DNA of 64,000 nt from a virus, in IMG/VR virus record IMGVR_UViG_3300028549_001120; one strand, given 5' to 3'. The stretch's first letter is position 1. The number at the start of each line of letters is the position of its first letter. Under the pieces are notes generated by a model, which was given only the letters and a program-made list of their open reading frames with translations, searched no databases and was not told the DNA's origin. Positions 6,321 to 58,106 of this stretch are shown here, piece by piece. Both the position numbers and the translations under genes were made by a program.

Positions 6321-6757
6321 CTACATAATTTTAAAAAGGTTAATACTACAATCGAATTAAGCACTAATACATAAATCATACTTAAATAAGATATGATTTC
6401 TATATGAAATATAATTGCTAATACGTTAATCAAACATATAAGAAAATACAAATGGCTTATTATTTTTGAATATATACAAGCTTTATATCTATAGACTTTC
6501 AAAACAAAAAAGATTGAAAATAATAAAAGTGAAAGTTGTACAAATAAAGGGTACCAAAATATCAAATATTTATCTCCGTACGATTTGAATGTTGCAGGAT
6601 TAGAATCATCTGGAAAGAAAAAAGATACTAATTCTATAAGAGTTACCAAAAAGATTACTAGAGCCATCATAAAATCGAGGCATTTTTTATCATTTGAAAT
6701 GGTTTCTTTAAAACTTATTCGGGCTTTTTGTAAAACCTCATTTGGTATTCTAGGCAT
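6299..6757 (-). CDS. Integral membrane protein, unknown function
   Basis: 152 aa with 4 long hydrophobic stretches. Overlaps the downstream gene by 22 nt. Confidence 0.6.
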   Translation of the reverse strand: MPRIPNEVLQKARISFKETISNDKKCLDFMMALVIFLVTLIELVSFFFPDDSNPATFKSYGDKYLIFWYPLFVQLSLLLFSIFFVLKVYRYKACIYSKIISHLYFLICLINVLAIIFHIEIISYLSMIYVLVLNSIVVLTFLKLCRWFSKLQ

Positions 6758-6761
6758 AATA

Positions 6762-7589
6762 TTAGGGGATTAATTTATTTATAAGTTTAAATTTTTCTGG
6801 GTGCTCCATTTTCACAATAGATTCAATTCTAGTAAACCAATTGTCATCGTGTTTTGCTCCCCATATATGAATACATCCTAACTCATTCATTTTATCTATT
6901 ATGAAAGGTTCCGATAAATAATTAGGTTCTATATTCATTTGTGCTGCTACTGTTGCCGCTATATACTGTTCAAAAATTACACAATATAATCCAGCAACCC
7001 CAGTTTGGGTGATTAGCTCTTGATTATTATTAACTAATTCAAATGCTTGCTTACAATATTCTTTATTATATTCAAGATTATTACAAAGGTAAATTCCGCA
7101 ATTTAAAGCATAGGTAACATTTCCCCAACTATCTGGTAAAATTCCATTTTTACTTAAGTGTTCGTATTGTCCTCTGTAACTATTTTCGAACCAGTCTGCT
7201 GCTTCTTTATTCTGGAATAAGATTTCGGATTGTAAAAACTTTTCAGCTAATGGTTGAAATAAAATAAAATCGTTATCTATATGAACAAAAGGTTTATCTT
7301 GTAATTGATAGGCTTTAATTTTACCTAAAGCCCATAATTTTTTGTTATATCCCTTTTCATTCAATTCGTCCAAATCTGTCCTAATACTGGTAAACGGAAG
7401 TCCAAGTTCTTTGAATAATTCTGCAGATTTACTATCTGTAACTATTTCAACCTCTTCGAACCATTTAGCAGCTTGGGACACTGCAAGAACCCAACTATAT
7501 AAATGGAATTTTGGATTTTTCCAATTAGTTGCTGCAATTAGTGCATTTCCTGTAGTGTCCCAAAAACTAAATACTGCTTTTTTTATCAT
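6762..7589 (-). CDS. Hypothetical protein with a DxD-like motif (possible nucleotide-sugar transferase fold; weak)
   Basis: 275 aa, soluble. KPFVHIDNDFILF has a hydrophobic strand followed by D-x-D. No other motif recognised. Confidence 0.35.
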   Translation of the reverse strand: MIKKAVFSFWDTTGNALIAATNWKNPKFHLYSWVLAVSQAAKWFEEVEIVTDSKSAELFKELGLPFTSIRTDLDELNEKGYNKKLWALGKIKAYQLQDKPFVHIDNDFILFQPLAEKFLQSEILFQNKEAADWFENSYRGQYEHLSKNGILPDSWGNVTYALNCGIYLCNNLEYNKEYCKQAFELVNNNQELITQTGVAGLYCVIFEQYIAATVAAQMNIEPNYLSEPFIIDKMNELGCIHIWGAKHDDNWFTRIESIVKMEHPEKFKLINKLIP

Positions 7590-32895: not shown

Positions 32896-33714
32896 TCATT
32901 TTTTATAGAAAAATAATTTTTGTTCTGGTCTTAGGTAAAATCCATCCTTAATTCCTTCTAGAAATGCTGCATTTTTAGGATTCTGTAATTTCATAGGTTG
33001 TGTAGTCAAATTTTCAAAATCTTTTTCAATAGCCGATTGCAATTCAAGTGCTGTAGAAGTCAATATAAGCCCAGAAGTTTCTATTTGTTTACAATCTTCT
33101 ATACTATCTTTTAAGATTTGGTTGTAGAATCCTGTAATTACTCCCTCATAGTAAGATTTTTTAAATTCACTTTCATTCATTACAACTCCGTCTTTTATCA
33201 GTCTATCAAAATTATTAAGTATATAGGCACGTTCGAATTTTCTACTTAATCCTTTTTTTACATTCTCTAAGTAAGTTGAATATCTAGCTCTTCTAAGTGC
33301 TCTGTATTTTTTAAGGAGGATTCTAAAAAATTCTATAACAAGCTCACGATATTCTTTTTTCCCATACACATACAAATACATTCCAATCAATACAGATTTT
33401 CCCTTTACTTCTGACTTATAACTTGAATAATCTTTTTCAGCTATTACTTTACAAAAATATTTTTCTGAAAGTAATTGCATTATACTCCAAGGCCAGTGTA
33501 ATATATCTTCACATTCTCCTTGTGTATATCTTATTACATCGCGTTCTACTGGATTATTTTCCTCGAAGCAATGGTTTTCTAATTTATATTGTTTGATTAG
33601 CTTATTCGCCATAGATACAGCTACTAAGACTTCATTCTCAGTAGCTGCAGAATCTCTAGCCATTGCCATTAACTTTTTGATTCTCTCTATAATTTTATTC
33701 CCCTTCATCTCCAA
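32896..33714 (-). CDS. DUF2786-like protein, paralog B
   Basis: N-terminus IIERIKKLMAMARDSAATENEVLVAVSMANKLIKQYKL matches the DUF2786-type motif and the neighbouring paralog. Confidence 0.55.
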   Translation of the reverse strand: MEMKGNKIIERIKKLMAMARDSAATENEVLVAVSMANKLIKQYKLENHCFEENNPVERDVIRYTQGECEDILHWPWSIMQLLSEKYFCKVIAEKDYSSYKSEVKGKSVLIGMYLYVYGKKEYRELVIEFFRILLKKYRALRRARYSTYLENVKKGLSRKFERAYILNNFDRLIKDGVVMNESEFKKSYYEGVITGFYNQILKDSIEDCKQIETSGLILTSTALELQSAIEKDFENLTTQPMKLQNPKNAAFLEGIKDGFYLRPEQKLFFYKK

Positions 33715-34540
33715 TCATTTTAGTGTTGTGGTCTGTTTTTCCATCCTTGATTCCTTCTTGAAAAGCTTCCTCACTGTAGATAACTGTATTTCCTAGCTTA
33801 TTGGATTCTTTTATTTTATTTTGGAATAATTCTGGTAACCTTAATGCTATCAATTCGTCGTGTCTTTTTACAATCAATCCCCAAGTATTTCTATCTGATT
33901 CAATTTGTAAAAGTTCGCTTTGTTGGGATTTCAAATAAGCTTTTATCCCTTTGATTGTACCAGCTAAATAAGAGGTTACCCAAGTTGGCTTTGCTGTCAT
34001 TTGTCTAATTCCTTGGAAATATTGTACTGTAATTCCTTTGGTATCAAGCCCCATTGCTTTTAATTCAGCAACGAGTTCATTTTTTCTTTTTACTTGATAT
34101 TCCTTGTATCGGATTTCTGAAAGTGTAAGGAATTTCTCTACAGTAGTTTCGTAAAGTTCTTTTACAACCATTCTATTTTCCTCCGTACCTACTATTGAAA
34201 GTCTTACTGCTTTTGTATCTTTCCAATTAGGTGCATCAAAATCATAATTCGTTCCGTGGTATATTTTGCAATTGTAAAAATTTGCGATTGTGTCAAGTAA
34301 CTCCCATTCAAAATTAGTGGATTTGTATTTGAAAGATTTCCAAAGTTGTGAAAAGATTACTTCCTTATTTATATCTGAAGGGTGGATTTGAATATCTCCC
34401 TCCTGAATATTATGTTCCATCATTAGCTTCTGAGCCATCTTCATACAGATTTCTACTTCGTTTTCTGCTGAAGCTGGGTCTTTCGCCTTAGCTAACATCT
34501 TTCTGATTCTTGAAAGTATTTTATTGTCTACTGATTCCAT
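33695..34540 (-). CDS. DUF2786-like protein, paralog A
   Basis: N-terminus ILSRIRKMLAKAKDPASAENEVEICMKMAQKLMMEHNI. Same architecture as 32896..33714. Confidence 0.55.
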   Translation of the reverse strand: MESVDNKILSRIRKMLAKAKDPASAENEVEICMKMAQKLMMEHNIQEGDIQIHPSDINKEVIFSQLWKSFKYKSTNFEWELLDTIANFYNCKIYHGTNYDFDAPNWKDTKAVRLSIVGTEENRMVVKELYETTVEKFLTLSEIRYKEYQVKRKNELVAELKAMGLDTKGITVQYFQGIRQMTAKPTWVTSYLAGTIKGIKAYLKSQQSELLQIESDRNTWGLIVKRHDELIALRLPELFQNKIKESNKLGNTVIYSEEAFQEGIKDGKTDHNTKMIGDEGE

Positions 34541-42381: not shown

Positions 42382-42678
42382 CTAAGCATTTTTACTTTTA
42401 CAGTTTTCGCAGTTACCGTCGCATTTTCTTACTTCGAATCTTCTTACCTCTGCATTAGGGAACATTTTCAATAGTTCTTTTATTGGCTCTGGTAAATCTT
42501 CCTCTTGCTCTTCTGGTTTTACAACTTCTGGTTGTTTTACTTCCATTTGGTTTATTGCAATCTGTGTATTGATTGATAGAAGTTTTACTTTTTTCTTTTC
42601 TAACAATATTTGAATTGCTTCGAATGTAGTCAAATCTGGGAATTGACTTTTTAATTTTTGGATTTTCTTTCCGTTCAT
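42382..42678 (-). CDS. Hypothetical protein
   Basis: 98-aa ORF with C-terminal CDGNCENC. Confidence 0.6.
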   Translation of the reverse strand: MNGKKIQKLKSQFPDLTTFEAIQILLEKKKVKLLSINTQIAINQMEVKQPEVVKPEEQEEDLPEPIKELLKMFPNAEVRRFEVRKCDGNCENCKSKNA

Positions 42679-42956
42679 TACTTTATAATTTGAGTTAACT
42701 TTTCGTATGATTTTTCTGCTTCCATTGCTTTTGCTTTTGCATTAGCTGTATTTGTCAATACTTGCTCTAATACAAAATCTCTAATTTCGTGAAGTACACT
42801 TGGTAATTCTGAATAGTGGAAGCTTATTAATAGATTATTTTTTATCTCTTGTAATGTTGCTTCCCTTTTACTTTGATATTCAGCTGAGCATTCAATTGGT
42901 TTTTGAAGTTCATTTTCTACTGCTTTTTCTAAAAGCTCTTTAAAATTTATTTCCAT
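42678..42956 (-). CDS. Hypothetical protein
   Basis: 92-aa ORF with a TAATG junction. Confidence 0.6.
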   Translation of the reverse strand: MEINFKELLEKAVENELQKPIECSAEYQSKREATLQEIKNNLLISFHYSELPSVLHEIRDFVLEQVLTNTANAKAKAMEAEKSYEKLTQIIK

Positions 42957-43408
42957 TATTTCTGTTTTAAAATATAATCTGGGTATCTTACCTCTTCAAA
43001 TGAACGTATTCTAATACAAGGTACTGCATTTGGAATTACTTTTCTCGTGCAATCTGAAACTAAAATACAGTTATCATCTTCTATTACTCCTAAGTGAAAA
43101 TCTATTATTGCTGGATGATTTATAATCGTTCCATCTTCTAAGATTTCTGAAGGTACTGAAATTTCATTTTGCTTTCTACTCCACGTTACTACTGTACCTT
43201 TAGAAGCATTTCTTGGGTCAAATGGTAAAAATTCAAAATCAGATTCAAGTTGTTGTACCCATTTAACTTTGGATTTTATTCCTGCCCTTTTAAAAGCATA
43301 AGTCAAACAAGTTTCTTTCTTGTCTACTCTAGTTCTATGTAATTTTTTAACTTCCATTTTCTCCGAACTTATATTTCCTTTCCCATCTGAATAGTAATAA
43401 TGCGCCAT
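42956..43408 (-). CDS. Hypothetical protein, possible papain-like Cys/His hydrolase (weak)
   Basis: 150 aa. ETCLTYAF ... DFHLGVIEDD suggests a Cys-His pair. Weak. Confidence 0.3.
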   Translation of the reverse strand: MAHYYYSDGKGNISSEKMEVKKLHRTRVDKKETCLTYAFKRAGIKSKVKWVQQLESDFEFLPFDPRNASKGTVVTWSRKQNEISVPSEILEDGTIINHPAIIDFHLGVIEDDNCILVSDCTRKVIPNAVPCIRIRSFEEVRYPDYILKQK

Positions 43409-43420
43409 TTAGATTCATTT

Positions 43421-44012
43421 AAAAAGGGACTTACTAAAAACTGCTGAGTGAAACATCAGTCCCAATGTTTGCTATCAAAGCCAACTGAATAACTTATTGT
43501 CGTATACTTCGTAAAGTTCCCTAACTCATTTATTGCTTTGCTGCTTTGTACTATAAAGAAGATTCGAACTTCAATCCTGGGTCCCCTATTTGCTATTACT
43601 AGCCATCTTAGTTCTCCTGTGCACCATTACACCATATAGCTCCCCAAGTTTCGAACCTTGGATTATGAAAACCGCTAAGTCTTCATTTTTGTGGGGGTAG
43701 ATAGGACTTGAACCTATAAGGATTGTTTTCTGCTCTGTGGAACCCCGTCACTTATATAGCTTCTTTCTCACTAATGGTCAAGATTTGCCCACCTCGGCGA
43801 GGATTACTCTCCATATACCCGTCGATATACTTGTTTACCAATTTCAACACTCCCCCAAATTTATAAAACCTTTAGGTCACATCGCCCAGTTTTCATTCTA
43901 TCGCTAAATAGACGTTCTAGTTGCTCCTACTTGCGTTTTCAGACTTGGCTAAAACTCTTCTGCTGTCACTGCTAAAGGTTTATATTTCAATGAACTTCTT
44001 TATATAATTTTG
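43421..44012 (-). ncRNA. About 0.6 kb non-coding transcription unit with tRNA-like (T-arm / D-arm / acceptor-like) modules; class unknown
   Basis: No ORF of 60 aa or more on either strand, and the region looks G/C-richer than its flanks. Promoter cassette at 44019-44049; hairpin GGGACT...AGTCCC plus TTTTT at 43421-43463. T-arm-like ATAGG-TTCAAGT-CCTAT (43701-43717), GAAG-TTCGAAT-CTTC (43558-43572) and CCAAG-GTTCGAAA-CTTGG (43644-43661). GNRA hairpin GCTA-GTAA-TAGC (43592-43603). Confidence 0.5.
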
Positions 44013-44018
44013 ATAGGG

Positions 44019-44049
44019 CAAATATACGATATTTTTATTTAGATAAAAA
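44019..44049 (-). promoter_or_regulatory. Early-type promoter cassette driving the non-coding unit
   Basis: Minus strand: TTTTTATCTAAATAAAAATATCG-TATATTTG-CCCTATCAAAAT. Confidence 0.6.
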
Positions 44050-44066
44050 TAAAAATATAAAAATTT

Positions 44067-44285
44067 TTAAACTAATTTGAATTTTTTTTCTGTTTTAGAA
44101 TTTTCTAATCCGATTCTAGTTTCTATAATGTGATTACAAACGTCCTCACAAAGTGAATCAAAATCTGAATTAGTAAATTTTCTTTTTAAATGTTGGAAAT
44201 ACAAAATAAAATTTCCATCTTTGTCTATAGAAATTGCAAATGTTGCATTTGTAGTTTCTAAAATCAATTCCTTTAATCTTTTCAT
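44067..44285 (-). CDS. Hypothetical protein
   Basis: 72-aa ORF with an ATGA overlap upstream. Confidence 0.6.
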   Translation of the reverse strand: MKRLKELILETTNATFAISIDKDGNFILYFQHLKRKFTNSDFDSLCEDVCNHIIETRIGLENSKTEKKFKLV

Positions 44286-44881
44286 TTTTTCAAAACAGTA
44301 TATGGGTAAAAATCTATATTAAAAAAGTCAACTTGTACGCCAATTCCCATAAGTCCAGCAATTGCTATTACTCTTCCTTCCTTACCTATTGAAGTTTTCA
44401 TTGAATCAGTCCATTCATTCAACCATCCTTCGGAATTAGTATCTTCTGGGACAATTTTTACCTTGTCTCCTACATTGATTCCGGATTTGATTTGATTTTC
44501 TATATACAATTTTTGTGCATCTGTAGCATTCTCCTCTGTAATAGAATCCAATTGTGTAGGCATTTTTGGGAATTCAAATGTACTTGATATTTTCTGAGTT
44601 ACTAAATTATAGAAAAATACAGTTAAATATTTTTTATGAACTGCATAAGTAATTGAATCCGGGAATTTCCATACAGACAATTTTTCGTCTTTTCTCTTGA
44701 GTTTTATTTCCTCATAATTTCCTCTACCAAATAGTCTAACTTCTGGTCTACTTCCGTAAAATTCTATTTGCATTAGTTTATCATAGAATCTAAAGGAATT
44801 GCTCATACTACATAAATTTAGAAAAGCTTGGTGAACTCCTTCTAAATGTAAAACTTCGGCTGGTTTATTTTCAGAACTCAT
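44282..44881 (-). CDS. Hypothetical protein
   Basis: ORF 44282..44890. The ATG at 44881 (MSSENK) is the likelier start. Confidence 0.6.
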   Translation of the reverse strand: MSSENKPAEVLHLEGVHQAFLNLCSMSNSFRFYDKLMQIEFYGSRPEVRLFGRGNYEEIKLKRKDEKLSVWKFPDSITYAVHKKYLTVFFYNLVTQKISSTFEFPKMPTQLDSITEENATDAQKLYIENQIKSGINVGDKVKIVPEDTNSEGWLNEWTDSMKTSIGKEGRVIAIAGLMGIGVQVDFFNIDFYPYTVLKK

Positions 44882-45266
44882 AAATAGCAACTAATTTAGA
44901 TTTGTTAAAAGAACGCCAAGCTTTAGATTGTAAATCGAAATACGTTTGAATTTCTGGATTTGATTTTCTTTCCTTAGGTTCTACTGGAGCAAAGTGTCCA
45001 TTTAGTTCCTTTGTAAGGGTTTCGATAGCTTCTACTTTTTCAGTTCCTGGGTCCATATTTAAAATATGGTAAGCTGCTTCTAAAGTCTGATTTTTCTTTT
45101 CTAGGACTTTTTTATCTATCGGAATTAAATCTTGATTTAATGTTCCAATAGCTAATCTAACTTCGCCGTCTGTTTTTTCGAATTCGAAAATAGTAACTCC
45201 ATTCAATAGTTTTTCATAAACTAAAGTTGAGTCTTCTGCTGGGTTTTTAATTTCTGTACGTTTCAT
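44871..45266 (-). CDS. Hypothetical protein
   Basis: 131-aa ORF. Confidence 0.6.
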   Translation of the reverse strand: MKRTEIKNPAEDSTLVYEKLLNGVTIFEFEKTDGEVRLAIGTLNQDLIPIDKKVLEKKNQTLEAAYHILNMDPGTEKVEAIETLTKELNGHFAPVEPKERKSNPEIQTYFDLQSKAWRSFNKSKLVAIYEF

Positions 45267-46900: not shown

Positions 46901-47204
46901 AATATTTTATTTTATCAATCATATAACTCTCATCAAACTTTACTCCATTTGATTTTAAAAAGATGTAGTGGGTTTCAAATAAATATTTCATATAATGCTT
47001 TTTGTCCCCGTATTCTACGTGCTCTTCTCGAGTAACTGCCATTAAATTTTCAATCCGGTCTTTGTCTCCTAAAGGATTTCCCCCGCTGCCTTTGCACTCG
47101 ATATGGTGAATATCTACTGCTCTATTTCCGGATATTTCGGAGGGAATAAAATCTTCCCCCGAATATCCTAACGCTTTCATATAAATTTTTGTATGATTTT
47201 TCAT
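46887..47204 (-). CDS. HNH endonuclease-like protein
   Basis: AVDIHHIECKGSGGNPLGDKDRIENLMAVTREEHVEY (H-H ... N ... H). ATGA overlap with thyA. Confidence 0.55.
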   Translation of the reverse strand: MKNHTKIYMKALGYSGEDFIPSEISGNRAVDIHHIECKGSGGNPLGDKDRIENLMAVTREEHVEYGDKKHYMKYLFETHYIFLKSNGVKFDESYMIDKIKYYEGQ

Positions 47205-48370
47205 TTAAGTCCTGTTGAAAGTTTTGCTTTAATATGTGGATGCGGATTGTAACCTTCTAATCTAAATAAATCCGAATCCCATTGTTGTATTGAGTCTAGG
47301 AATAATTTTATGGATTCCTCTGCAGTACAATCTTTATGATTACAGTTATCAATCATATAATGGAATTCATCCTTAAATTCTAAAGTTGGTAGGTCCTTAA
47401 TATCTCTAGACAATTGCTCGTCTACCTGTTCTTTATGATTTTCATAGATATGTACATCCCCGAAAGTATGTATGAATTCCCCTGGTATCATATTACAGAA
47501 TTTTGCAATTATTTCAGTAAGCAAAGAATAACTAGCTGTATTATATGGAACGCCTAAGAATATATCTGAACTTCTTTGATACATCTGGCAATCTAAATAG
47601 TATTTTGGAACTTTATGTTTATCTAAAAATTCCATATATTCAGTTTCAGACATTACATTCCTATTCCAATATTCGTTACTAATTTGCTGTGTTATTAAAT
47701 CATACCGGTCTTGATTTGATAATGGTCTGCAATTGAATTGAACTAAAGCGTGACAAGCATTTAAAGCCATTTGATTTAAAGTAGCCGGATTCCAAGCTGT
47801 AATAATGTGCCTTCTACTTTCCGGATTTTTCTTTAATCCTAAAATAAGTTCATAAAGTTGGTCTACTCTTTCTGAGGTCTCTACAACACTTCCGGGGGAT
47901 TTAATTATAGTTTCTAATACCCTATCTCCCCAATCCCTCCATAATTTACCATATTGAATTCCACAGTCCCCAAAAATGTAACCATTATTGAAATGGGTTT
48001 TCGAAAGTTCATTTAATCCCATTACAGATTCACGTCTTACAATCTCTACAAAATCTTCAAATGTTACTGAATTTTGACTAATAGCTTTACACGATTTTAA
48101 ATAATAGTTATAAGCATCTTCATTCCAGATATTACAACCATTCTCTACTAAGAATTTAATATTGGTATCGCCTTTCAAAAACCAAATCAATTCTATTACA
48201 ATATTCTTGAATGAAAGTTTTTTGGTTGTAAGTAATGGAAAACCTTTACTTAAATCGTGTCTAAATTGTGCACCGAATAAACTTATTGTTCCGGGCATAT
48301 TTTCTCTTGCTGGGGATTTATAAGTTCCCTTAGATTTAATCTCTTCTAAAAGTTTATGATACTGTTCCAT
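47201..48370 (-). CDS. thyA: Thymidylate synthase (ThyA) with three insertions
   Basis: GFPLLTTKK, ELIWFLKGDTN, SRRHIITAWNP, catalytic ALNACHALVQF, MYQRSSDIFLGVPYNTASYSLL, GDVHIY. 389 aa versus about 264 for E. coli ThyA. Confidence 0.85.
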   Translation of the reverse strand: MEQYHKLLEEIKSKGTYKSPARENMPGTISLFGAQFRHDLSKGFPLLTTKKLSFKNIVIELIWFLKGDTNIKFLVENGCNIWNEDAYNYYLKSCKAISQNSVTFEDFVEIVRRESVMGLNELSKTHFNNGYIFGDCGIQYGKLWRDWGDRVLETIIKSPGSVVETSERVDQLYELILGLKKNPESRRHIITAWNPATLNQMALNACHALVQFNCRPLSNQDRYDLITQQISNEYWNRNVMSETEYMEFLDKHKVPKYYLDCQMYQRSSDIFLGVPYNTASYSLLTEIIAKFCNMIPGEFIHTFGDVHIYENHKEQVDEQLSRDIKDLPTLEFKDEFHYMIDNCNHKDCTAEESIKLFLDSIQQWDSDLFRLEGYNPHPHIKAKLSTGLK

Positions 48371-52705: not shown

Positions 52706-53152
52706 TTATGCTCCAGTACTTCCAAATCCCCCGGAACCTCTTTCACTCTGATTTAATTCCTCTTCTGTAAATAAATTTGATTCGTCTACCAATTCTACAG
52801 AATCATAAAATACTGGAATTAATATACATTGAAGTAATTTTTTCCCGGGTTGTAAAGTTATAGGAGAGGTTCCTGTATTGATTACATTTAAGTGGATTTC
52901 ACCTGTATAATCTTCGTCAATTACATTAGCTCCGACTACCATTCCTTCTTTAGTAGTAACCCCACTTTTATTATATGCTATTAAAGCATACCCTGTAGGA
53001 ACATTTGCACGAATTCCAGAAGGAATATTGATTCTATCCTGAGGATATAAAATGCAAGGTGCAAAATCGTCGGGTATGAAAAAGTCAATTCCGGCACTTC
53101 TATTGGTTCCTCTTTCTGGTGTTTTTACTGGTCTTACTTTTGATATTTTCAT
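52706..53152 (-). CDS. dut: dUTPase (trimeric family)
   Basis: RSAGIDFF, GANVIDEDYTGEI, C-terminal ERGSGGFGSTGA. Confidence 0.85.
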   Translation of the reverse strand: MKISKVRPVKTPERGTNRSAGIDFFIPDDFAPCILYPQDRINIPSGIRANVPTGYALIAYNKSGVTTKEGMVVGANVIDEDYTGEIHLNVINTGTSPITLQPGKKLLQCILIPVFYDSVELVDESNLFTEEELNQSERGSGGFGSTGA

Positions 53153-54480
53153 TTTGAAAAATTTATTTGATTAAACATATTTTGAAATTCATTTTGATAA
53201 TCTGTCTTATTTAAAGCCATTTTATCATTTCTTAATGGAGTTTTAGTCCTAGATAAAATCTCTACTGGAATTATATCTTTAAAAGTTTCTTTTAAAATTT
53301 TCTTACCCCTTCTAGATTCATAGGGAAGATTTAAAGCATATCTTACAATTTCGTGACTCAGAAAAGGATTACGGATTTCTTTAGTAAATCTCATTCCCAT
53401 TCTATCTAACCTAATATTGTGATAATATGGGAGTTCTGTAAATACATCAAAATTTTGGGTATCTTTGATTTGTGCTCTACTGTACCCAGAAAAAAGTTCG
53501 TCTGCACCGTCTCCAGTAAAGATTACAGAACCCCTACTAAATTCTATCAGTTTTGATTGTTGAAATAAACTTCCCTTTTCTATAGGATATTCGTAGGACT
53601 TAGCAATTTTTTGAATCTCCTGTACATCTCTTAAATCTGGCTTAGAAATAATTTCAATTTCACATTTATAAAAATCTTCAATATAAGGCAAATAAAAAGA
53701 ATCGTTTTGGTTTTCTATTGCTAATAATTGAAAGTTCCCTATAACGCCTAATTCGAATAAAATACCGAGTATAATAGTTGAATCTAATCCTCCGCTAATT
53801 AATAAGGTATTTGAATCAAAATTATTTATCAATCTCATTTGAACTGCTTCTTTCATAAGTTCTAATAAGTTATTTGATTTCGGAGGTCTTTTTAAATCAT
53901 ATAAGATTTTAGAATCTTTTTTAGGAACGATTCCATCAAAATAGTATAGCTTATTTGGTTCCAATCTATATATCCATTGAAAAGGAGTTAAAGAAGTTTT
54001 TTCAACTTCTGTTTGATTGAATTTATAATCTTTAAAATCTTCTTTCAAAATGGCTTTTATTTCAGAAGCAATGCAACCTTCAGTATTATAATAAAGTTGC
54101 TTTTTTCCTAAAGGGTCTGTAAAAGCATAAATCCCTTTAGGGGTTACAATACAAATTGCCCAAAATCCATCCCATTCATTATATTCAGAACCTCCAATAT
54201 TTTCTAGCCAGTTTTCTTTTTCGAAAAAGTTAATCAAATATTGAACGTCATTTTTAAAGTTCCTAGGAATGTTAAAGATTTCCCCATTGAATAATAAATA
54301 ATTCCCATTAGAAAGTTTTATGGGTTGATTATACTCATCGTCTAATAAAGTCTGGAAAGGGAGTTTAAAGTGAGTAAGAGAATAATCCAAAAACTCTACT
54401 GTAGTTTTTTTAACCCCTCTATGTGAAATTTTAGAGGGGTTGCAAAAACCGGACTTATATTGAATTGCTATTCCACACAT
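53149..54480 (-). CDS. Asparagine-synthase-B-like glutamine amidotransferase / PP-loop ATP pyrophosphatase
   Basis: N-terminal MCGI (Ntn nucleophile Cys2), PP-loop LLISGGLDST, FTGDGADELFSGY. Confidence 0.7.
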   Translation of the reverse strand: MCGIAIQYKSGFCNPSKISHRGVKKTTVEFLDYSLTHFKLPFQTLLDDEYNQPIKLSNGNYLLFNGEIFNIPRNFKNDVQYLINFFEKENWLENIGGSEYNEWDGFWAICIVTPKGIYAFTDPLGKKQLYYNTEGCIASEIKAILKEDFKDYKFNQTEVEKTSLTPFQWIYRLEPNKLYYFDGIVPKKDSKILYDLKRPPKSNNLLELMKEAVQMRLINNFDSNTLLISGGLDSTIILGILFELGVIGNFQLLAIENQNDSFYLPYIEDFYKCEIEIISKPDLRDVQEIQKIAKSYEYPIEKGSLFQQSKLIEFSRGSVIFTGDGADELFSGYSRAQIKDTQNFDVFTELPYYHNIRLDRMGMRFTKEIRNPFLSHEIVRYALNLPYESRRGKKILKETFKDIIPVEILSRTKTPLRNDKMALNKTDYQNEFQNMFNQINFSK

Positions 54481-54481
54481 A

Positions 54482-55387
54482 TTATGAAATTTTTTCTAAT
54501 ACAACTCCTACTTGATAGTAAGGAACTTTGACTTCTGGGAAACGTTTTGAGTAAGTTCTCATAAACATAGTTTCTGGAGTGTGTCTGTGAATATACCAAC
54601 CTAAGATTTTAAAATTTGGATTAGCTTCTAAAAAATCCCCCATTACAAATTTTTGAAGTAAAAATGGTTGTTTATTTTGAATACAATCTTTAATCAATGT
54701 GATAAATTTCCCACCTACTTTTAGATTTTTAGTAGCTGCTGTAAGAGTTTTAGTCATTTCTGGTCTAAAATCTCGTTTCCAATGTAAAATCCCCAAAGAT
54801 TTTTCTGCATTATAGTTATTAGTTTCAAATCCCTTTTCAGAATCTTTTTTAGGGTTCATAGGAGCATCTGAAGTAATATTGCCACTTATAATAGGATAGG
54901 GAAAGCCTGTGATTACCAAATCCAATTTGTCTTCTAAAGTAGGGAGAACTTCTCTACAATCTCCGTGTAAAACTTTCGTAAAAGCTTCTCTAGGATAGGA
55001 TTTTTTGATATGTTCTAAATTGTCTTGTAAAAGTTGATTGAATTCTACTTCTACCCCTATTGAATTTCTACCTTGTAAATATGATTCAATCATAGTAGTT
55101 CCAGAACCTACAAACGGGTCTAAAACTATTCCACCTACAGGTGAAAAGTGTTCTACTCCAAAAGAATATCCTTGGAAGTGTCCTTCGTCTAAATGTTTTT
55201 GCTCAGACTTAGGTCTGTAAGCTCTTCCACAATTTCTAGAATAATATTTACCTTCCCTGTTACAGTAAATTTCACCAAAAAATTTATGTTGTTTTAAGTC
55301 TTCCCAATGGAAGTCTTCTGGAATTTCCATTCTGAATTCTAATGATTCTCCTGGATTATTTAATTTGTTTACATATACTGTGCTCAT
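54482..55387 (-). CDS. SAM-dependent amino-methyltransferase-fold protein with motif I before a degenerate motif IV
   Basis: VLDPFVGSGTTMIESYLQGRNSIGVEV (motif I), then HGDCREVL...DLVITGFPYP where D/N/S-PP-Y/F is expected. Confidence 0.55.
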   Translation of the reverse strand: MSTVYVNKLNNPGESLEFRMEIPEDFHWEDLKQHKFFGEIYCNREGKYYSRNCGRAYRPKSEQKHLDEGHFQGYSFGVEHFSPVGGIVLDPFVGSGTTMIESYLQGRNSIGVEVEFNQLLQDNLEHIKKSYPREAFTKVLHGDCREVLPTLEDKLDLVITGFPYPIISGNITSDAPMNPKKDSEKGFETNNYNAEKSLGILHWKRDFRPEMTKTLTAATKNLKVGGKFITLIKDCIQNKQPFLLQKFVMGDFLEANPNFKILGWYIHRHTPETMFMRTYSKRFPEVKVPYYQVGVVLEKIS

Positions 55388-56232
55388 TTTAATCTTTTTT
55401 TAAGTTCGTATAAATCTGATTTGAAAATATGAAGGGACTGAATATGGAAAGTAAATCGTCCCGGTTTTACTTTATTCCAATCTAATTTTGAATTCGAATT
55501 TTTTAATGATTCCAATACAAAATATAAAAGTCTAATTGCAAGATAAATATCATTTTTGAAGTGACGTATATAATCGCAAGAACGAAGATAGTAAGTTATG
55601 TGAAGATAACCTTCACGATAGGAAAATAAATATCCTAATGTACACGGAACACGTCCTTCGTGAACTACTCCAGTATCTTCTGGGAACCAAATTGGTAAAT
55701 AAGCTTGACGAGTTGTTGGATTAGAAGACAAGTGGTTTATCAAATCTTTTAAATCCCCGTAGGGGTATCGTATACCTAAATTATTTGGGTGAGTATGGTC
55801 CTTAGGAAAATCAGTAAAATCTAATTTCTTAAAAGGGTATTTTGAATCTCCTTCAAGTTCAATCATCAACGTATTTCCAGCTTTTTTAGGCCAGAATCGT
55901 TCTTGATATGTGTGGGTGAAAATTTCTTTTCTATACTCGTCTTCTTTATAATAGGGCCAATCTTTATAAGTATTACCTGGATTTGAAGGAATTCCGGAAA
56001 TACGCTCTTCAAAATGATTATCTGCCCAAGGTAAATCTGGACTGCATTGATTCTGTAGAATTTCTAAAGTGTCTGGAATATTACATCTAAAAGTTCTATC
56101 AAAAATTTCAATCATCGGGGTTTTTAATTCAAGTCCCTGCCATTTTTCGGGTTGAATTTCTTTAGCATTAGAAGATTCAAACAATCTACCTGCTTCAACT
56201 ATAATTGCTCTAGGATTTGGAAATATCTTCAT
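55384..56232 (-). CDS. Second thymidylate-synthase-fold protein (dNMP C5 methylase/hydroxymethylase candidate)
   Basis: TRQAYLPIWFPED ... RVPCTLGYLF ... YYLRSCDYIRHFKNDIY ... SLHIF aligns by eye with ThyA SRRIIVSAWN ... APCHAFFQF ... LYQRSCDVFLGLPFNIASY ... DTHLY. Confidence 0.6.
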   Translation of the reverse strand: MKIFPNPRAIIVEAGRLFESSNAKEIQPEKWQGLELKTPMIEIFDRTFRCNIPDTLEILQNQCSPDLPWADNHFEERISGIPSNPGNTYKDWPYYKEDEYRKEIFTHTYQERFWPKKAGNTLMIELEGDSKYPFKKLDFTDFPKDHTHPNNLGIRYPYGDLKDLINHLSSNPTTRQAYLPIWFPEDTGVVHEGRVPCTLGYLFSYREGYLHITYYLRSCDYIRHFKNDIYLAIRLLYFVLESLKNSNSKLDWNKVKPGRFTFHIQSLHIFKSDLYELKKRLK

Positions 56233-58076: not shown

Positions 58077-58106
58077 CAAATATACATCTTTTTATTTAGA
58101 TAAAAA
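58077..58106 (-). promoter_or_regulatory. Early-type promoter cassette (-7 box TATATTTG)
   Basis: Minus strand: TTTTTATCTAAATAAAAAGATG-TATATTTG-CATATC. Confidence 0.65.

Follow-up and report, generated by a model that had tools for sequence, protein, structure and literature searches.

In the mascRNA of MALAT1 and in mitochondrial tRNA punctuation, a transfer RNA (tRNA) fold that can do without its anticodon region serves as a cleavage signal for RNase P and RNase Z. The tRNA cluster of phage T4 encodes stable RNAs that are not tRNAs (species 1 and 2, encoded by rnaC and rnaD) and that are processed with the tRNAs. Here we compare such systems with an island of tRNA-shaped elements in a viral DNA stretch of 64,000 nucleotides (nt; IMG/VR record IMGVR_UViG_3300028549_001120, the whole of which is hereafter referred to as the window), and in particular with one module of that island, M1, on the minus strand at 43693-43856. 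In bacteria, YrlA, a Y RNA, mimics tRNA through a T-arm/D-arm elbow (PMC4201824). Mycobacteriophage DS6A encodes a transfer-messenger RNA (tmRNA) that has no coding sequence and comprises only the tRNA-like domain (TLD), and that is reported to inhibit host tmRNA upon expression in E. coli (cited in PMC11915505). Phage tRNAs that evade or neutralize tRNA-targeting defences have also been described, and these still decode (PMC10264068, PMC11464382, PMC11555353, PMC13056530). Clusters of tRNA and tmRNA genes occur in tailed phages; the flavobacterial Cellulophaga phage Calle, for example, encodes a tmRNA alongside 20 tRNAs (PMC8776804), and marine phages can have two-piece tmRNAs (PMC9004378).

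M1 is best read as a diverged class II tRNA-Leu gene with a non-decoding loop and an expanded variable arm. It belongs to a small family that is apparently undescribed and that has so far been found only on contigs of flavobacterial-type phages from metagenomes. No description of a closed-loop, long-armed RNA derived from tRNA-Leu was encountered in Rfam 15, among GenBank phages, or in a limited literature search. Like the tRNA and tmRNA clusters of other phages, the island is a dedicated non-coding segment in an early or replication region, and relatives have a tRNA-Met and a permuted tmRNA at the corresponding site; unlike those clusters, the window island comprises only non-decoding look-alikes, with no canonical tRNA or tmRNA. 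The setting within a cluster is similar to that of the T4 species 1 and 2 RNAs; the T4 RNAs are not known to be tRNA-Leu derivatives. The mascRNA and tRNA punctuation systems are eukaryotic or organellar, whereas M1 is from a phage. Like the DS6A RNA, which is proposed to act by mimicry or competition, M1 is phage-encoded, tRNA-shaped, and unable to carry out decoding or tagging in full; the DS6A RNA is derived from tmRNA, has alanine identity, and lacks a D stem, whereas M1 is derived from tRNA-Leu and has the full cloverleaf. YrlA is closed at the acceptor and ends in a long Ro-binding helix at the position of the anticodon stem, whereas M1 has the topology of an ordinary tRNA. In contrast to the phage tRNAs that evade defences and still decode, M1 would indicate use of the tRNA body itself.

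M1 is located in a gap of 658 nt without open reading frames (ORFs; 43409-44066), flanked by two minus-strand genes that code for proteins of 72 amino acids (aa; 44067-44285) and 150 aa (42956-43408). Away from the window edges this is by far the longest such gap, the next-longest being 157 and 127 nt, and its G+C fraction (0.39; 0.45 in M1) exceeds that of the whole window (0.31). A preliminary description of this DNA had called it the only long ORF-free stretch, richer in G/C than its surroundings, and both statements hold. All of the motifs that it had pointed out are also present at their positions: GGGGG (43852-43856), CCCCC (43693-43697), TTG-AAATTGGTAAA-CAA (43831-43847), the T arm ATAGG-TTCAAGT-CCTAT (43701-43717), CCTC-GCC-GAGG (43792-43802), two further T-arm-like motifs (43644-43661 and 43558-43572), and the GNRA hairpin GCTA-GTAA-TAGC (43592-43603). 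Overall, its observation is confirmed and its interpretation is partly supported.

On the minus strand, M1 comprises the 5' strand of the acceptor (43850-43856), U8 and G9 (43848-43849), a D arm (43831-43847), an anticodon-like stem of 5 base pairs (bp; 43825-43829 with 43814-43818) with the loop CGACGG (43819-43824), a variable-arm base in which GG (43811-43812) pairs with CC (43720-43721), a T arm (43701-43717), and the 3' strand of the acceptor (43694-43700, or 43693-43700 with a bulged A43698). The preliminary description had placed about 110 nt where an anticodon arm should be. This did not hold: the arm is present with its 5-bp stem, and the extra sequence is a lineage-specific insertion of 89 nt in the variable-arm loop (43722-43810), as defined by alignments with homologs. 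Similarly, the ATAT stem closing CGACGGGT that it had noticed exists, but it is the equivalent of the anticodon arm, has 5 bp, and covaries in all homologs. The CCTC-GCC-GAGG hairpin falls within the non-conserved insertion, for which no homolog was found in the window or in any locus retrieved.

Homologs of M1 were identified through the neighbouring 150-aa protein (loci L004 and L005), through a DNA-pattern scan of metagenomes (L050, identical in sequence to L110, and L091), and through a scan of genomes (L127, a distant syntenic relative binned with a Flavobacterium metagenome-assembled genome), which yields six distinct sequences including the window copy. A covariance model built from the five metagenomic homologs, with the window left out (R2), recovered M1 at 52.2 bits (E = 4.8e-13) as the sole strong match in 64 kb, and model R1 scored it at 64.3 bits. 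The members share a 7-bp acceptor, UG, a 3-bp D stem with the loop AAAYWGGUAAA, a 5-bp anticodon-like stem, a variable arm on an invariant GG...CC base, UU, a canonical T arm, and N73. Across the six homologs, 99.2% of cells are paired, and compensatory changes were identified in 16 of the 22 cloverleaf pairs, including all acceptor and all anticodon-stem pairs, so that the check for covariation in homologous regions proposed in the preliminary description turned out in favour of a conserved structure. None of 500 shuffled controls scored as high, and slid registers paired at only 39-53%. The closest M1 homolog of the window copy is that of L127. The two nearly match in the sequence of the acceptor, D arm, and T arm, and where one T-stem pair and each of the five pairs of the anticodon stem differ between them, pairing is kept. 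Because these six pairs changed yet stayed paired, we conclude that structural selection acted in the lineage of the window.

The loop is the second trait of the family. In the five other members it is an invariant CGAUG closed by a G-C pair, though every acceptor pair varies. In contrast, the interior of the variable arm ranges from 5-6 nt (L050 and L091) to 39 nt (L127, L004, and L005) and 89 nt (window), and the insertion in the window sits between the invariant GG...CC base, precisely where homologs have 5 to 39 nt. A73 is found in four of the six members, and the window has A or C depending on the register. M1 has the cloverleaf by which we propose to define the family (D loop AAAYWGGUAAA, covarying 5-bp stem, GG...CC base) and lacks the invariant loop, having CGACGG closed by U-G instead, which makes it a deviant member. 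With its acceptor defect, its CGACGG loop, and its 89-nt insertion, the window copy is the most deviant of the family.

The ancestry of the family is indicated by the sole similar record among 50,697 phage genomes, the tRNA-Leu(GAG) of Synechococcus phage S-CBWM1 (MG450654.1, 21566-21645). This tRNA scores 62.6 bits on R2, more than the window element, compared with 23 bits for a tRNA-Met. L050 and L091 have exactly its D arm (UGGUGAAAUUGGUAAACAC), and it shares with the M1 family the 7-bp acceptor, U8 and G9, the 3-bp D stem, and an identical D loop (AAAUUGGUAAA); the 5-bp anticodon stem, the variable arm, the T arm, and the mostly conserved A73 of the family are also those of tRNA-Leu. M1 itself has the features of a class II tRNA-Leu body (3-bp D stem, Leu-type D loop, long variable arm) and the canonical tRNA core (an acceptor with one defect, a D arm with G18G19, and a T arm with a GTTCRANYC loop). 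The family departs from tRNA-Leu in its loop (CGAUG, or CGACGG in the window, versus UUGAGGA) and in a variable arm of up to 89 nt, and M1 has no Leu anticodon (NAG or YAA).

Programs that search for known RNAs do not recognize this body in the window. ARAGORN called no tRNA or tmRNA gene in the window, Rfam at the gathering threshold found nothing in the whole window, and Rfam at E <= 10 on 43300-44150 (851 nt) left M1 unmatched and gave no tmRNA, Y RNA, or intron match. The sole Rfam match was a sub-threshold tRNA of 18.9 bits at 43549-43612, outside M1. The claim of a tRNA-like elbow without a canonical tRNA is therefore upheld, by the R2 score of 52.2 bits together with the absence of an ARAGORN or Rfam call, and the clean match to an ordinary tRNA that might have explained M1 away was not found with either program. 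Among the classes that the preliminary description had offered, a degenerate tRNA or a tRNA mimic comes closest, and the Y-RNA-like and tmRNA-TLD-like options are unsupported.

We consider it probable, if far from assured, that the island is a set of tRNA-shaped RNA genes in which M1 is a non-decoding mimic of tRNA-Leu that is excised and acts via its tRNA body. A single transcript from the promoter at 44019-44049 would carry a leader (M0) followed by M1 and two further modules (M2 and M3), and host RNase P and RNase Z would excise M1, to which CCA would be added as on a tRNA. RNase P, RNase Z, and the CCA-adding enzyme recognize the stack of acceptor and T arm and the elbow, not the anticodon, and bacterial leucyl-tRNA synthetase (LeuRS) does not read the anticodon. 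Since these enzymes ignore the anticodon, M1 would likely be excised and CCA-tailed and perhaps leucylated; unable to decode, it might then work through its tRNA body. One plausible role would be to mimic tRNA-Leu for a factor that binds tRNA, for example a host defence nuclease that targets tRNA, or LeuRS. Another plausible role would be that of a processing site that matures its neighbours, namely M0 in the window and, in L004 and L005, the coding piece of a two-piece tmRNA. That CGAUG is invariant argues for some specific recognition in addition to processing. The recurrence of tRNA-like elements with a closed anticodon at syntenic sites argues that it is the tRNA body that matters; examples outside the family are an element in L278 with a 4-nt loop and M3 of the window with a GUAA cap. 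A decoy for anticodon nucleases, as had been suggested, is possible, and the part that has been remodelled is the loop cut by such nucleases.

A broader proposal, which we regard as speculative and somewhat improbable in its full form, is that flavobacterial-type phages carry tRNA-Leu-derived mimics with a closed anticodon loop and a variable arm that serves as an expandable platform, that these are excised and possibly leucylated as tRNAs are but act off the ribosome, and that the window copy is a functional, extended member. Such mimics might be decoys or inhibitors of a host immune nuclease that targets tRNA, or of LeuRS; alternatively, they might signal the RNase P-dependent maturation of small RNAs of the phage, two-piece tmRNA among them. 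If mimics are indeed used in this way, they would represent a new type of phage non-coding RNA and would account for part of the ORF-free gaps in which tRNA finders annotate nothing.

Several observations weigh against a functional mimic. In the close relative L151/L152, in which the neighbouring protein is 93% identical and the flanks of the unit are 95-100% identical, M1 is precisely replaced, between GGUUUUAUAAA and ACAAAAAUGAAGAC. Because this relative has swapped M1 for a tRNA-Met and a tRNA-like element, M1 is dispensable. In L274, L276, and L277, whose SbcC proteins are 46-53% identical to that of the window, the island and five flanking small genes are absent. M1, and the island as a whole, are not essential, given this absence from the 93%-identity relative and from distant relatives. 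Folding does not set the unit apart from shuffled sequence (z = +0.8), nor does it do so for M1 (z = +0.06) or for the 89-nt insertion (no excess stability, z = +0.7); thermodynamic stability gives no information on the unit as a whole, on M1, or on the variable-arm inserts. The acceptor of M1 can be read in two ways, with a G5-A68 mismatch and C73 or with a bulged A43698 and A73, the latter of which keeps the A73-C74 of the family. The loop differs from the CGAUG of the family by a U to C change and one extra nucleotide, and it has 6 nt closed by U-G, or 8 nt with the U-G pair open. Moreover, the invariance of CGAUG is drawn from a family of six distinct members. Finally, the identity of other parts of the unit to L151 may reflect a recent recombination tract and not selection, as third-codon-position identity, measured in the adjacent 150-aa gene, is 90% compared with about 70% upstream. 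We therefore claim no selection on M0, M2, or the terminator-like hairpin.

The main rival to a functional mimic is that M1 is a decaying tRNA-Leu pseudogene in an island of fast turnover, transcribed by virtue of its position only and without function. The deviations of the window copy at invariant loop positions, the acceptor defect, and the unstructured, homolog-less 89-nt insertion are what decay would produce, and the replacement of M1 in L151, the absence of the island from other relatives, the resemblance of M2 to a tRNA fragment, and the failure of M1 to fold better than shuffled sequence all fit. We nevertheless regard this as unlikely, since decay would not keep paired the six pairs that changed on both sides relative to L127. 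In addition, all four helices keep their pairing, neither the D loop nor the T loop is damaged, the insertion was placed exactly where other members tolerate inserts, and the non-decoding loop is a trait of the family that is also found in members with perfect stems. Even if M1 were merely a decaying tRNA gene, the locus would still record rapid cassette exchange in a phage tRNA island. Slightly more credible than decay, though still doubtful, is that the tRNA-like modules are mainly processing punctuation, in which cuts at M1 and M3 free M0 or other small RNAs or part mRNAs, an account that overlaps with the favoured one. Conservation is confined to the parts that RNase P and RNase Z recognize, while the anticodon loop is closed and growth of the variable arm is unconstrained. 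The arrangement of the relatives points the same way: the homolog in L004 and L005 comes directly after the coding piece of the tmRNA and a tRNA-Met precedes the acceptor piece, the homolog in L091 sits between ORFs (7 nt after one and 22 nt before the next), and in L127 and L278 leaders of 300-400 nt are followed by tRNA-like elements that directly adjoin the start of an RNase H gene. A purely processing role leaves the invariant CGAUG loop unexplained, however, and the leaders differ between lineages, with M0 as a stable RNA being hypothetical.

The two remaining explanations fare considerably worse. That M1 works as a decoding tRNA, for example one with an intron or an unusually extended variable arm, would be in keeping with the short members of the family, which pass as tRNAs: ARAGORN calls them tRNA-Ile(GAU), and L091 scores 37.3 bits on the Rfam tRNA model and passes its threshold. 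The Ile(GAU) reading needs C33 and the pairs G32-C38 and C33-G37, and we judge the GCGAUGC or CGAUG loop of these members to be non-decoding: it has 5 nt, or 7 nt (GCGAUGC) with C33 in which G32-C38 and C33-G37 can pair. The loop in the window has 6 to 8 nt and no U33, and M1 fails the canonical anticodon-loop test (7 nt, U33, a purine at 37, and a sense anticodon); neither ARAGORN nor Rfam calls this copy. Bacterial tRNA introns sit in the anticodon loop, whereas the insertion in M1 is in the variable arm; at 89 nt it is too short for a group I intron, and it has no stable fold and no Rfam intron match. We consider a decoding M1 very improbable. The least probable explanation of all takes the unit to be a divergent tmRNA, of standard or permuted form, or a Ro-binding tRNA mimic of the YrlA/Y-RNA type, even though L004 and L005 have a permuted tmRNA just upstream of their M1 homolog and the unit holds several T-arm-like motifs. 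ARAGORN reported no tmRNA, and the 851 nt searched with Rfam at E <= 10 held neither tmRNA (RF00023, or permuted RF04321) nor Y RNA; as a positive control, RF04321 recognizes the tmRNAs of L004 (48.8 bits) and L005 (55.1 bits), both above its gathering score of 47. M1 has a D stem and G3-C70 instead of G3-U70, the unit has no conserved tag frame, and the flanks of M1 in the window have no significant similarity to the L004 and L005 tmRNA. M1 also ends at the acceptor and not at the anticodon-stem position as YrlA does, and no TROVE/Ro domain was detected among the 29 window ORFs, a subset of all ORFs, that were scanned with Pfam.

Under the favoured explanation, in which M1 acts as an excised tRNA-Leu mimic, the other parts of the unit would be its co-transcribed neighbours, all on the minus strand. 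M0 (43857-44012), a leader of about 155 nt, is predicted to form a long hairpin closed by a 10-bp helix, AAACCUUUAG/CUAAAGGUUU (-27.3 kcal/mol, z = -1.6), and is about 95% identical in L151; an RNase P cut at the 5' end of M1 would set its 3' end. No shared sequence was detectable between M0 and the leaders of L127, L278, and L050, or among those leaders, and Rfam gave no match for M0 or for the leaders of distant relatives. The end of M0 (GCAAGTAGGAGCAACTAGAACGTCT) was considered as a remnant of the end of the L004 tmRNA tag, which was rejected because no significant BLAST similarity was found and because the candidate tag frame in M0 is shifted by a 1-nt indel in L151. M2 (43641-43692) comprises two predicted hairpins, AUGAAGACU-UAGC-GGUUUUCAU and the T-arm-like CCAAG-GUUCGAAA-CUUGG with an 8-nt loop (-14.7 kcal/mol, z = -3.2), and is 100% identical in L151. 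Its start is the exact right border of the cassette replacement seen in L151, and M2 may be the remnant of a tRNA 3' half.

M3 (43549-43640) is a second tRNA-like module without an anticodon loop, proposed from its predicted fold and from T-stem changes relative to L151. It comprises an acceptor (GCUAUA/UAUAGU), a D-like hairpin, a central arm capped by GUAA, and the T arm GAAG-UUCGAAU-CUUC, whose loop is canonical. Two compensatory changes distinguish its T stem from that of L151, which, as a comparison of two sequences, is suggestive of a tRNA-like M3. Its scores on tRNA models are weak (18.9 bits on Rfam; 13 bits on R1 and R2). The alternative acceptor ACUAAGA, used by Rfam, R1, and R2 for 43549-43612, is not conserved in L151, and the GCUAUA/UAUAGU pairing was adopted. 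M2 and M3 were also considered together as a permuted tmRNA or as a single tRNA, and no consistent pairing was found by hand. The variable tail M4 (43464-43548) differs from L151 by substitutions and two indels in the alignment.

The unit begins with the promoter cassette TTTTTATCTAAATAAAAATATCG-TATATTTG (44019-44049, minus strand), which ends in a -7 box, TAnnTTTG, and was identified by its recurrence and its identity to L151 (100% conserved). The TAnnTTTG motif is typical of the -7 element of Bacteroidota promoters. The cassette TTTTTTATCTAAATAAAAAGnnnTAnnTTTGc was identified in eight intergenic regions of the window, in agreement with the preliminary description, which had assigned the unit its own copy. 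An extended form of about 32 nt, TTTTTTATCTAAATAAAAAGnnnTAnnTTTGc(c/t)..TTAAA, stands ahead of eight gene blocks, and TAnnTTTG elements were found on the minus strand at 58084, 52637, 44026, 38859, 36581, 32854, 27202, and 1567. A factor of the phage or of the host may bind the invariant TTATCTAAATAAAAA that lies upstream of the -7 box, and transcription would start a few nucleotides downstream of the cassette, near 44012. A second TAnnTTTG (TAAATTTG, 43863-43856) ends on the first G of M1; since the motif is not at the equivalent place in L151, it is probably coincidental. At the other end of the unit, a hairpin (GGGACU...AGUCCC) followed by U5 lies at 43421-43463 on the minus strand, 13 nt before the start codon of the next gene, and is identical in L151. 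The hairpin and its T5 tract are thus present as described, but the case for a terminator is weaker than had been claimed: the predicted fold has -9.9 kcal/mol (z = -1.3), with a 6-bp closing stem and a large internal loop, and a terminator scan did not call it.

Relatives of the window differ in the content of the island. The replacement elements in L151 (5033-5105 and 5111-5184 of that locus) comprise a 72-nt tRNA-like element without an anticodon arm and a canonical tRNA-Met(CAU). The former has a 7-bp acceptor and a perfect T arm and has GGACCCAGGA and the T arm in common with M3 of the window; the latter is called by ARAGORN and scores 55 bits on the Rfam tRNA model, with a U1-U72 mismatch. 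In L004 and L005, a tRNA-Met(CAU) precedes a permuted (two-piece) tmRNA (L004, 152-547; L005, 94-462; ARAGORN tag GKVITPSFSTARAAA, the tags being GKVITPSFSTARAAA and GKVITPSFTSARAAA), and the tRNA-Leu-like M1 homolog follows directly, starting 28 nt after the stop codon of the tag. Permuted tmRNA is typical of Alpha- and Betaproteobacteria and Cyanobacteria, and its occurrence in phages that are apparently of the Bacteroidota type is unusual.

Further tRNA-like elements were identified in more distant relatives. L278 encodes a class I tRNA-like element (6747-6815; 39 bits on the Rfam tRNA model) that is missed by ARAGORN, with the anticodon arm CCAC-UUAG-GUGG; its leader, about 235 nt long, is free of ORFs, and an RNase H gene begins just downstream, as is also the case for the M1 homolog in L127. 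L274 holds a weak, G+C-rich, Ser-like element of 87 nt (416-502), also missed by ARAGORN, that scores 15.8 bits on R1 and 19 bits on the Rfam tRNA-Sec model. In L274, L276, and L277, WYL_2 abuts Cpn10 directly or is followed by a nuclease gene and then Cpn10. The corresponding segment of the window (42382-44890) is a lineage-specific insert between WYL_2 and Cpn10 that comprises the RNA island and five small genes (202, 72, 150, 92, and 98 aa), none of which has a threshold-passing Pfam family.

The window as a whole, a JGI metagenome contig (3300033508, 66 kb), is the genome of a tailed phage with its genes on one strand (minus), among them genes for PolA, a helicase, SbcCD, a 5'-3' exonuclease, a DNA methylase, a tape-measure protein, two thymidylate-synthase-like proteins, and an Asn-synthase-like protein. 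No close relative was found among GenBank phages, where a 700-nt segment with the unit had no blastn match, nor did the L127 homolog; megablast of 20 kb of the window against the same phages returned only a short ThyA match to a Chryseobacterium phage. A close relative was likewise not found in IMG/VR, where protein-based and DNA-pattern scans gave only chance matches in coding DNA among the matches listed. Two overlapping plus-strand ORFs are antisense to M1 (43723-43866, 47 aa with a TTG start; 43737-43907, 56 aa with a GTG start). They are probably spurious, given that the remaining genes all lie on the minus strand and that L151 has this segment replaced.

Two further features of the gene content are of note. 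The window carries a run of an Asn-synthase/GATase-like gene, a DNA methylase gene, and a short thymidylate-synthase-like gene (282 aa) at 53149-56232, and a second, long ThyA at 47201-48370 (389 aa versus a Pfam profile of 266 positions). Relatives add dCMP deaminase, dUTPase, or carbamoyltransferase to this set of thymidylate-synthase and methylase genes, and the genes at 53149-56232 and 47201-48370 may form a module for DNA base hypermodification. The window also encodes two adjacent DUF2786 paralogs (33695-34540, 281 aa; 32896-33714, 272 aa), and in L004 and L005 a DUF2786/DUF7168 protein is encoded directly downstream of the island of tmRNA and tRNA-like elements.

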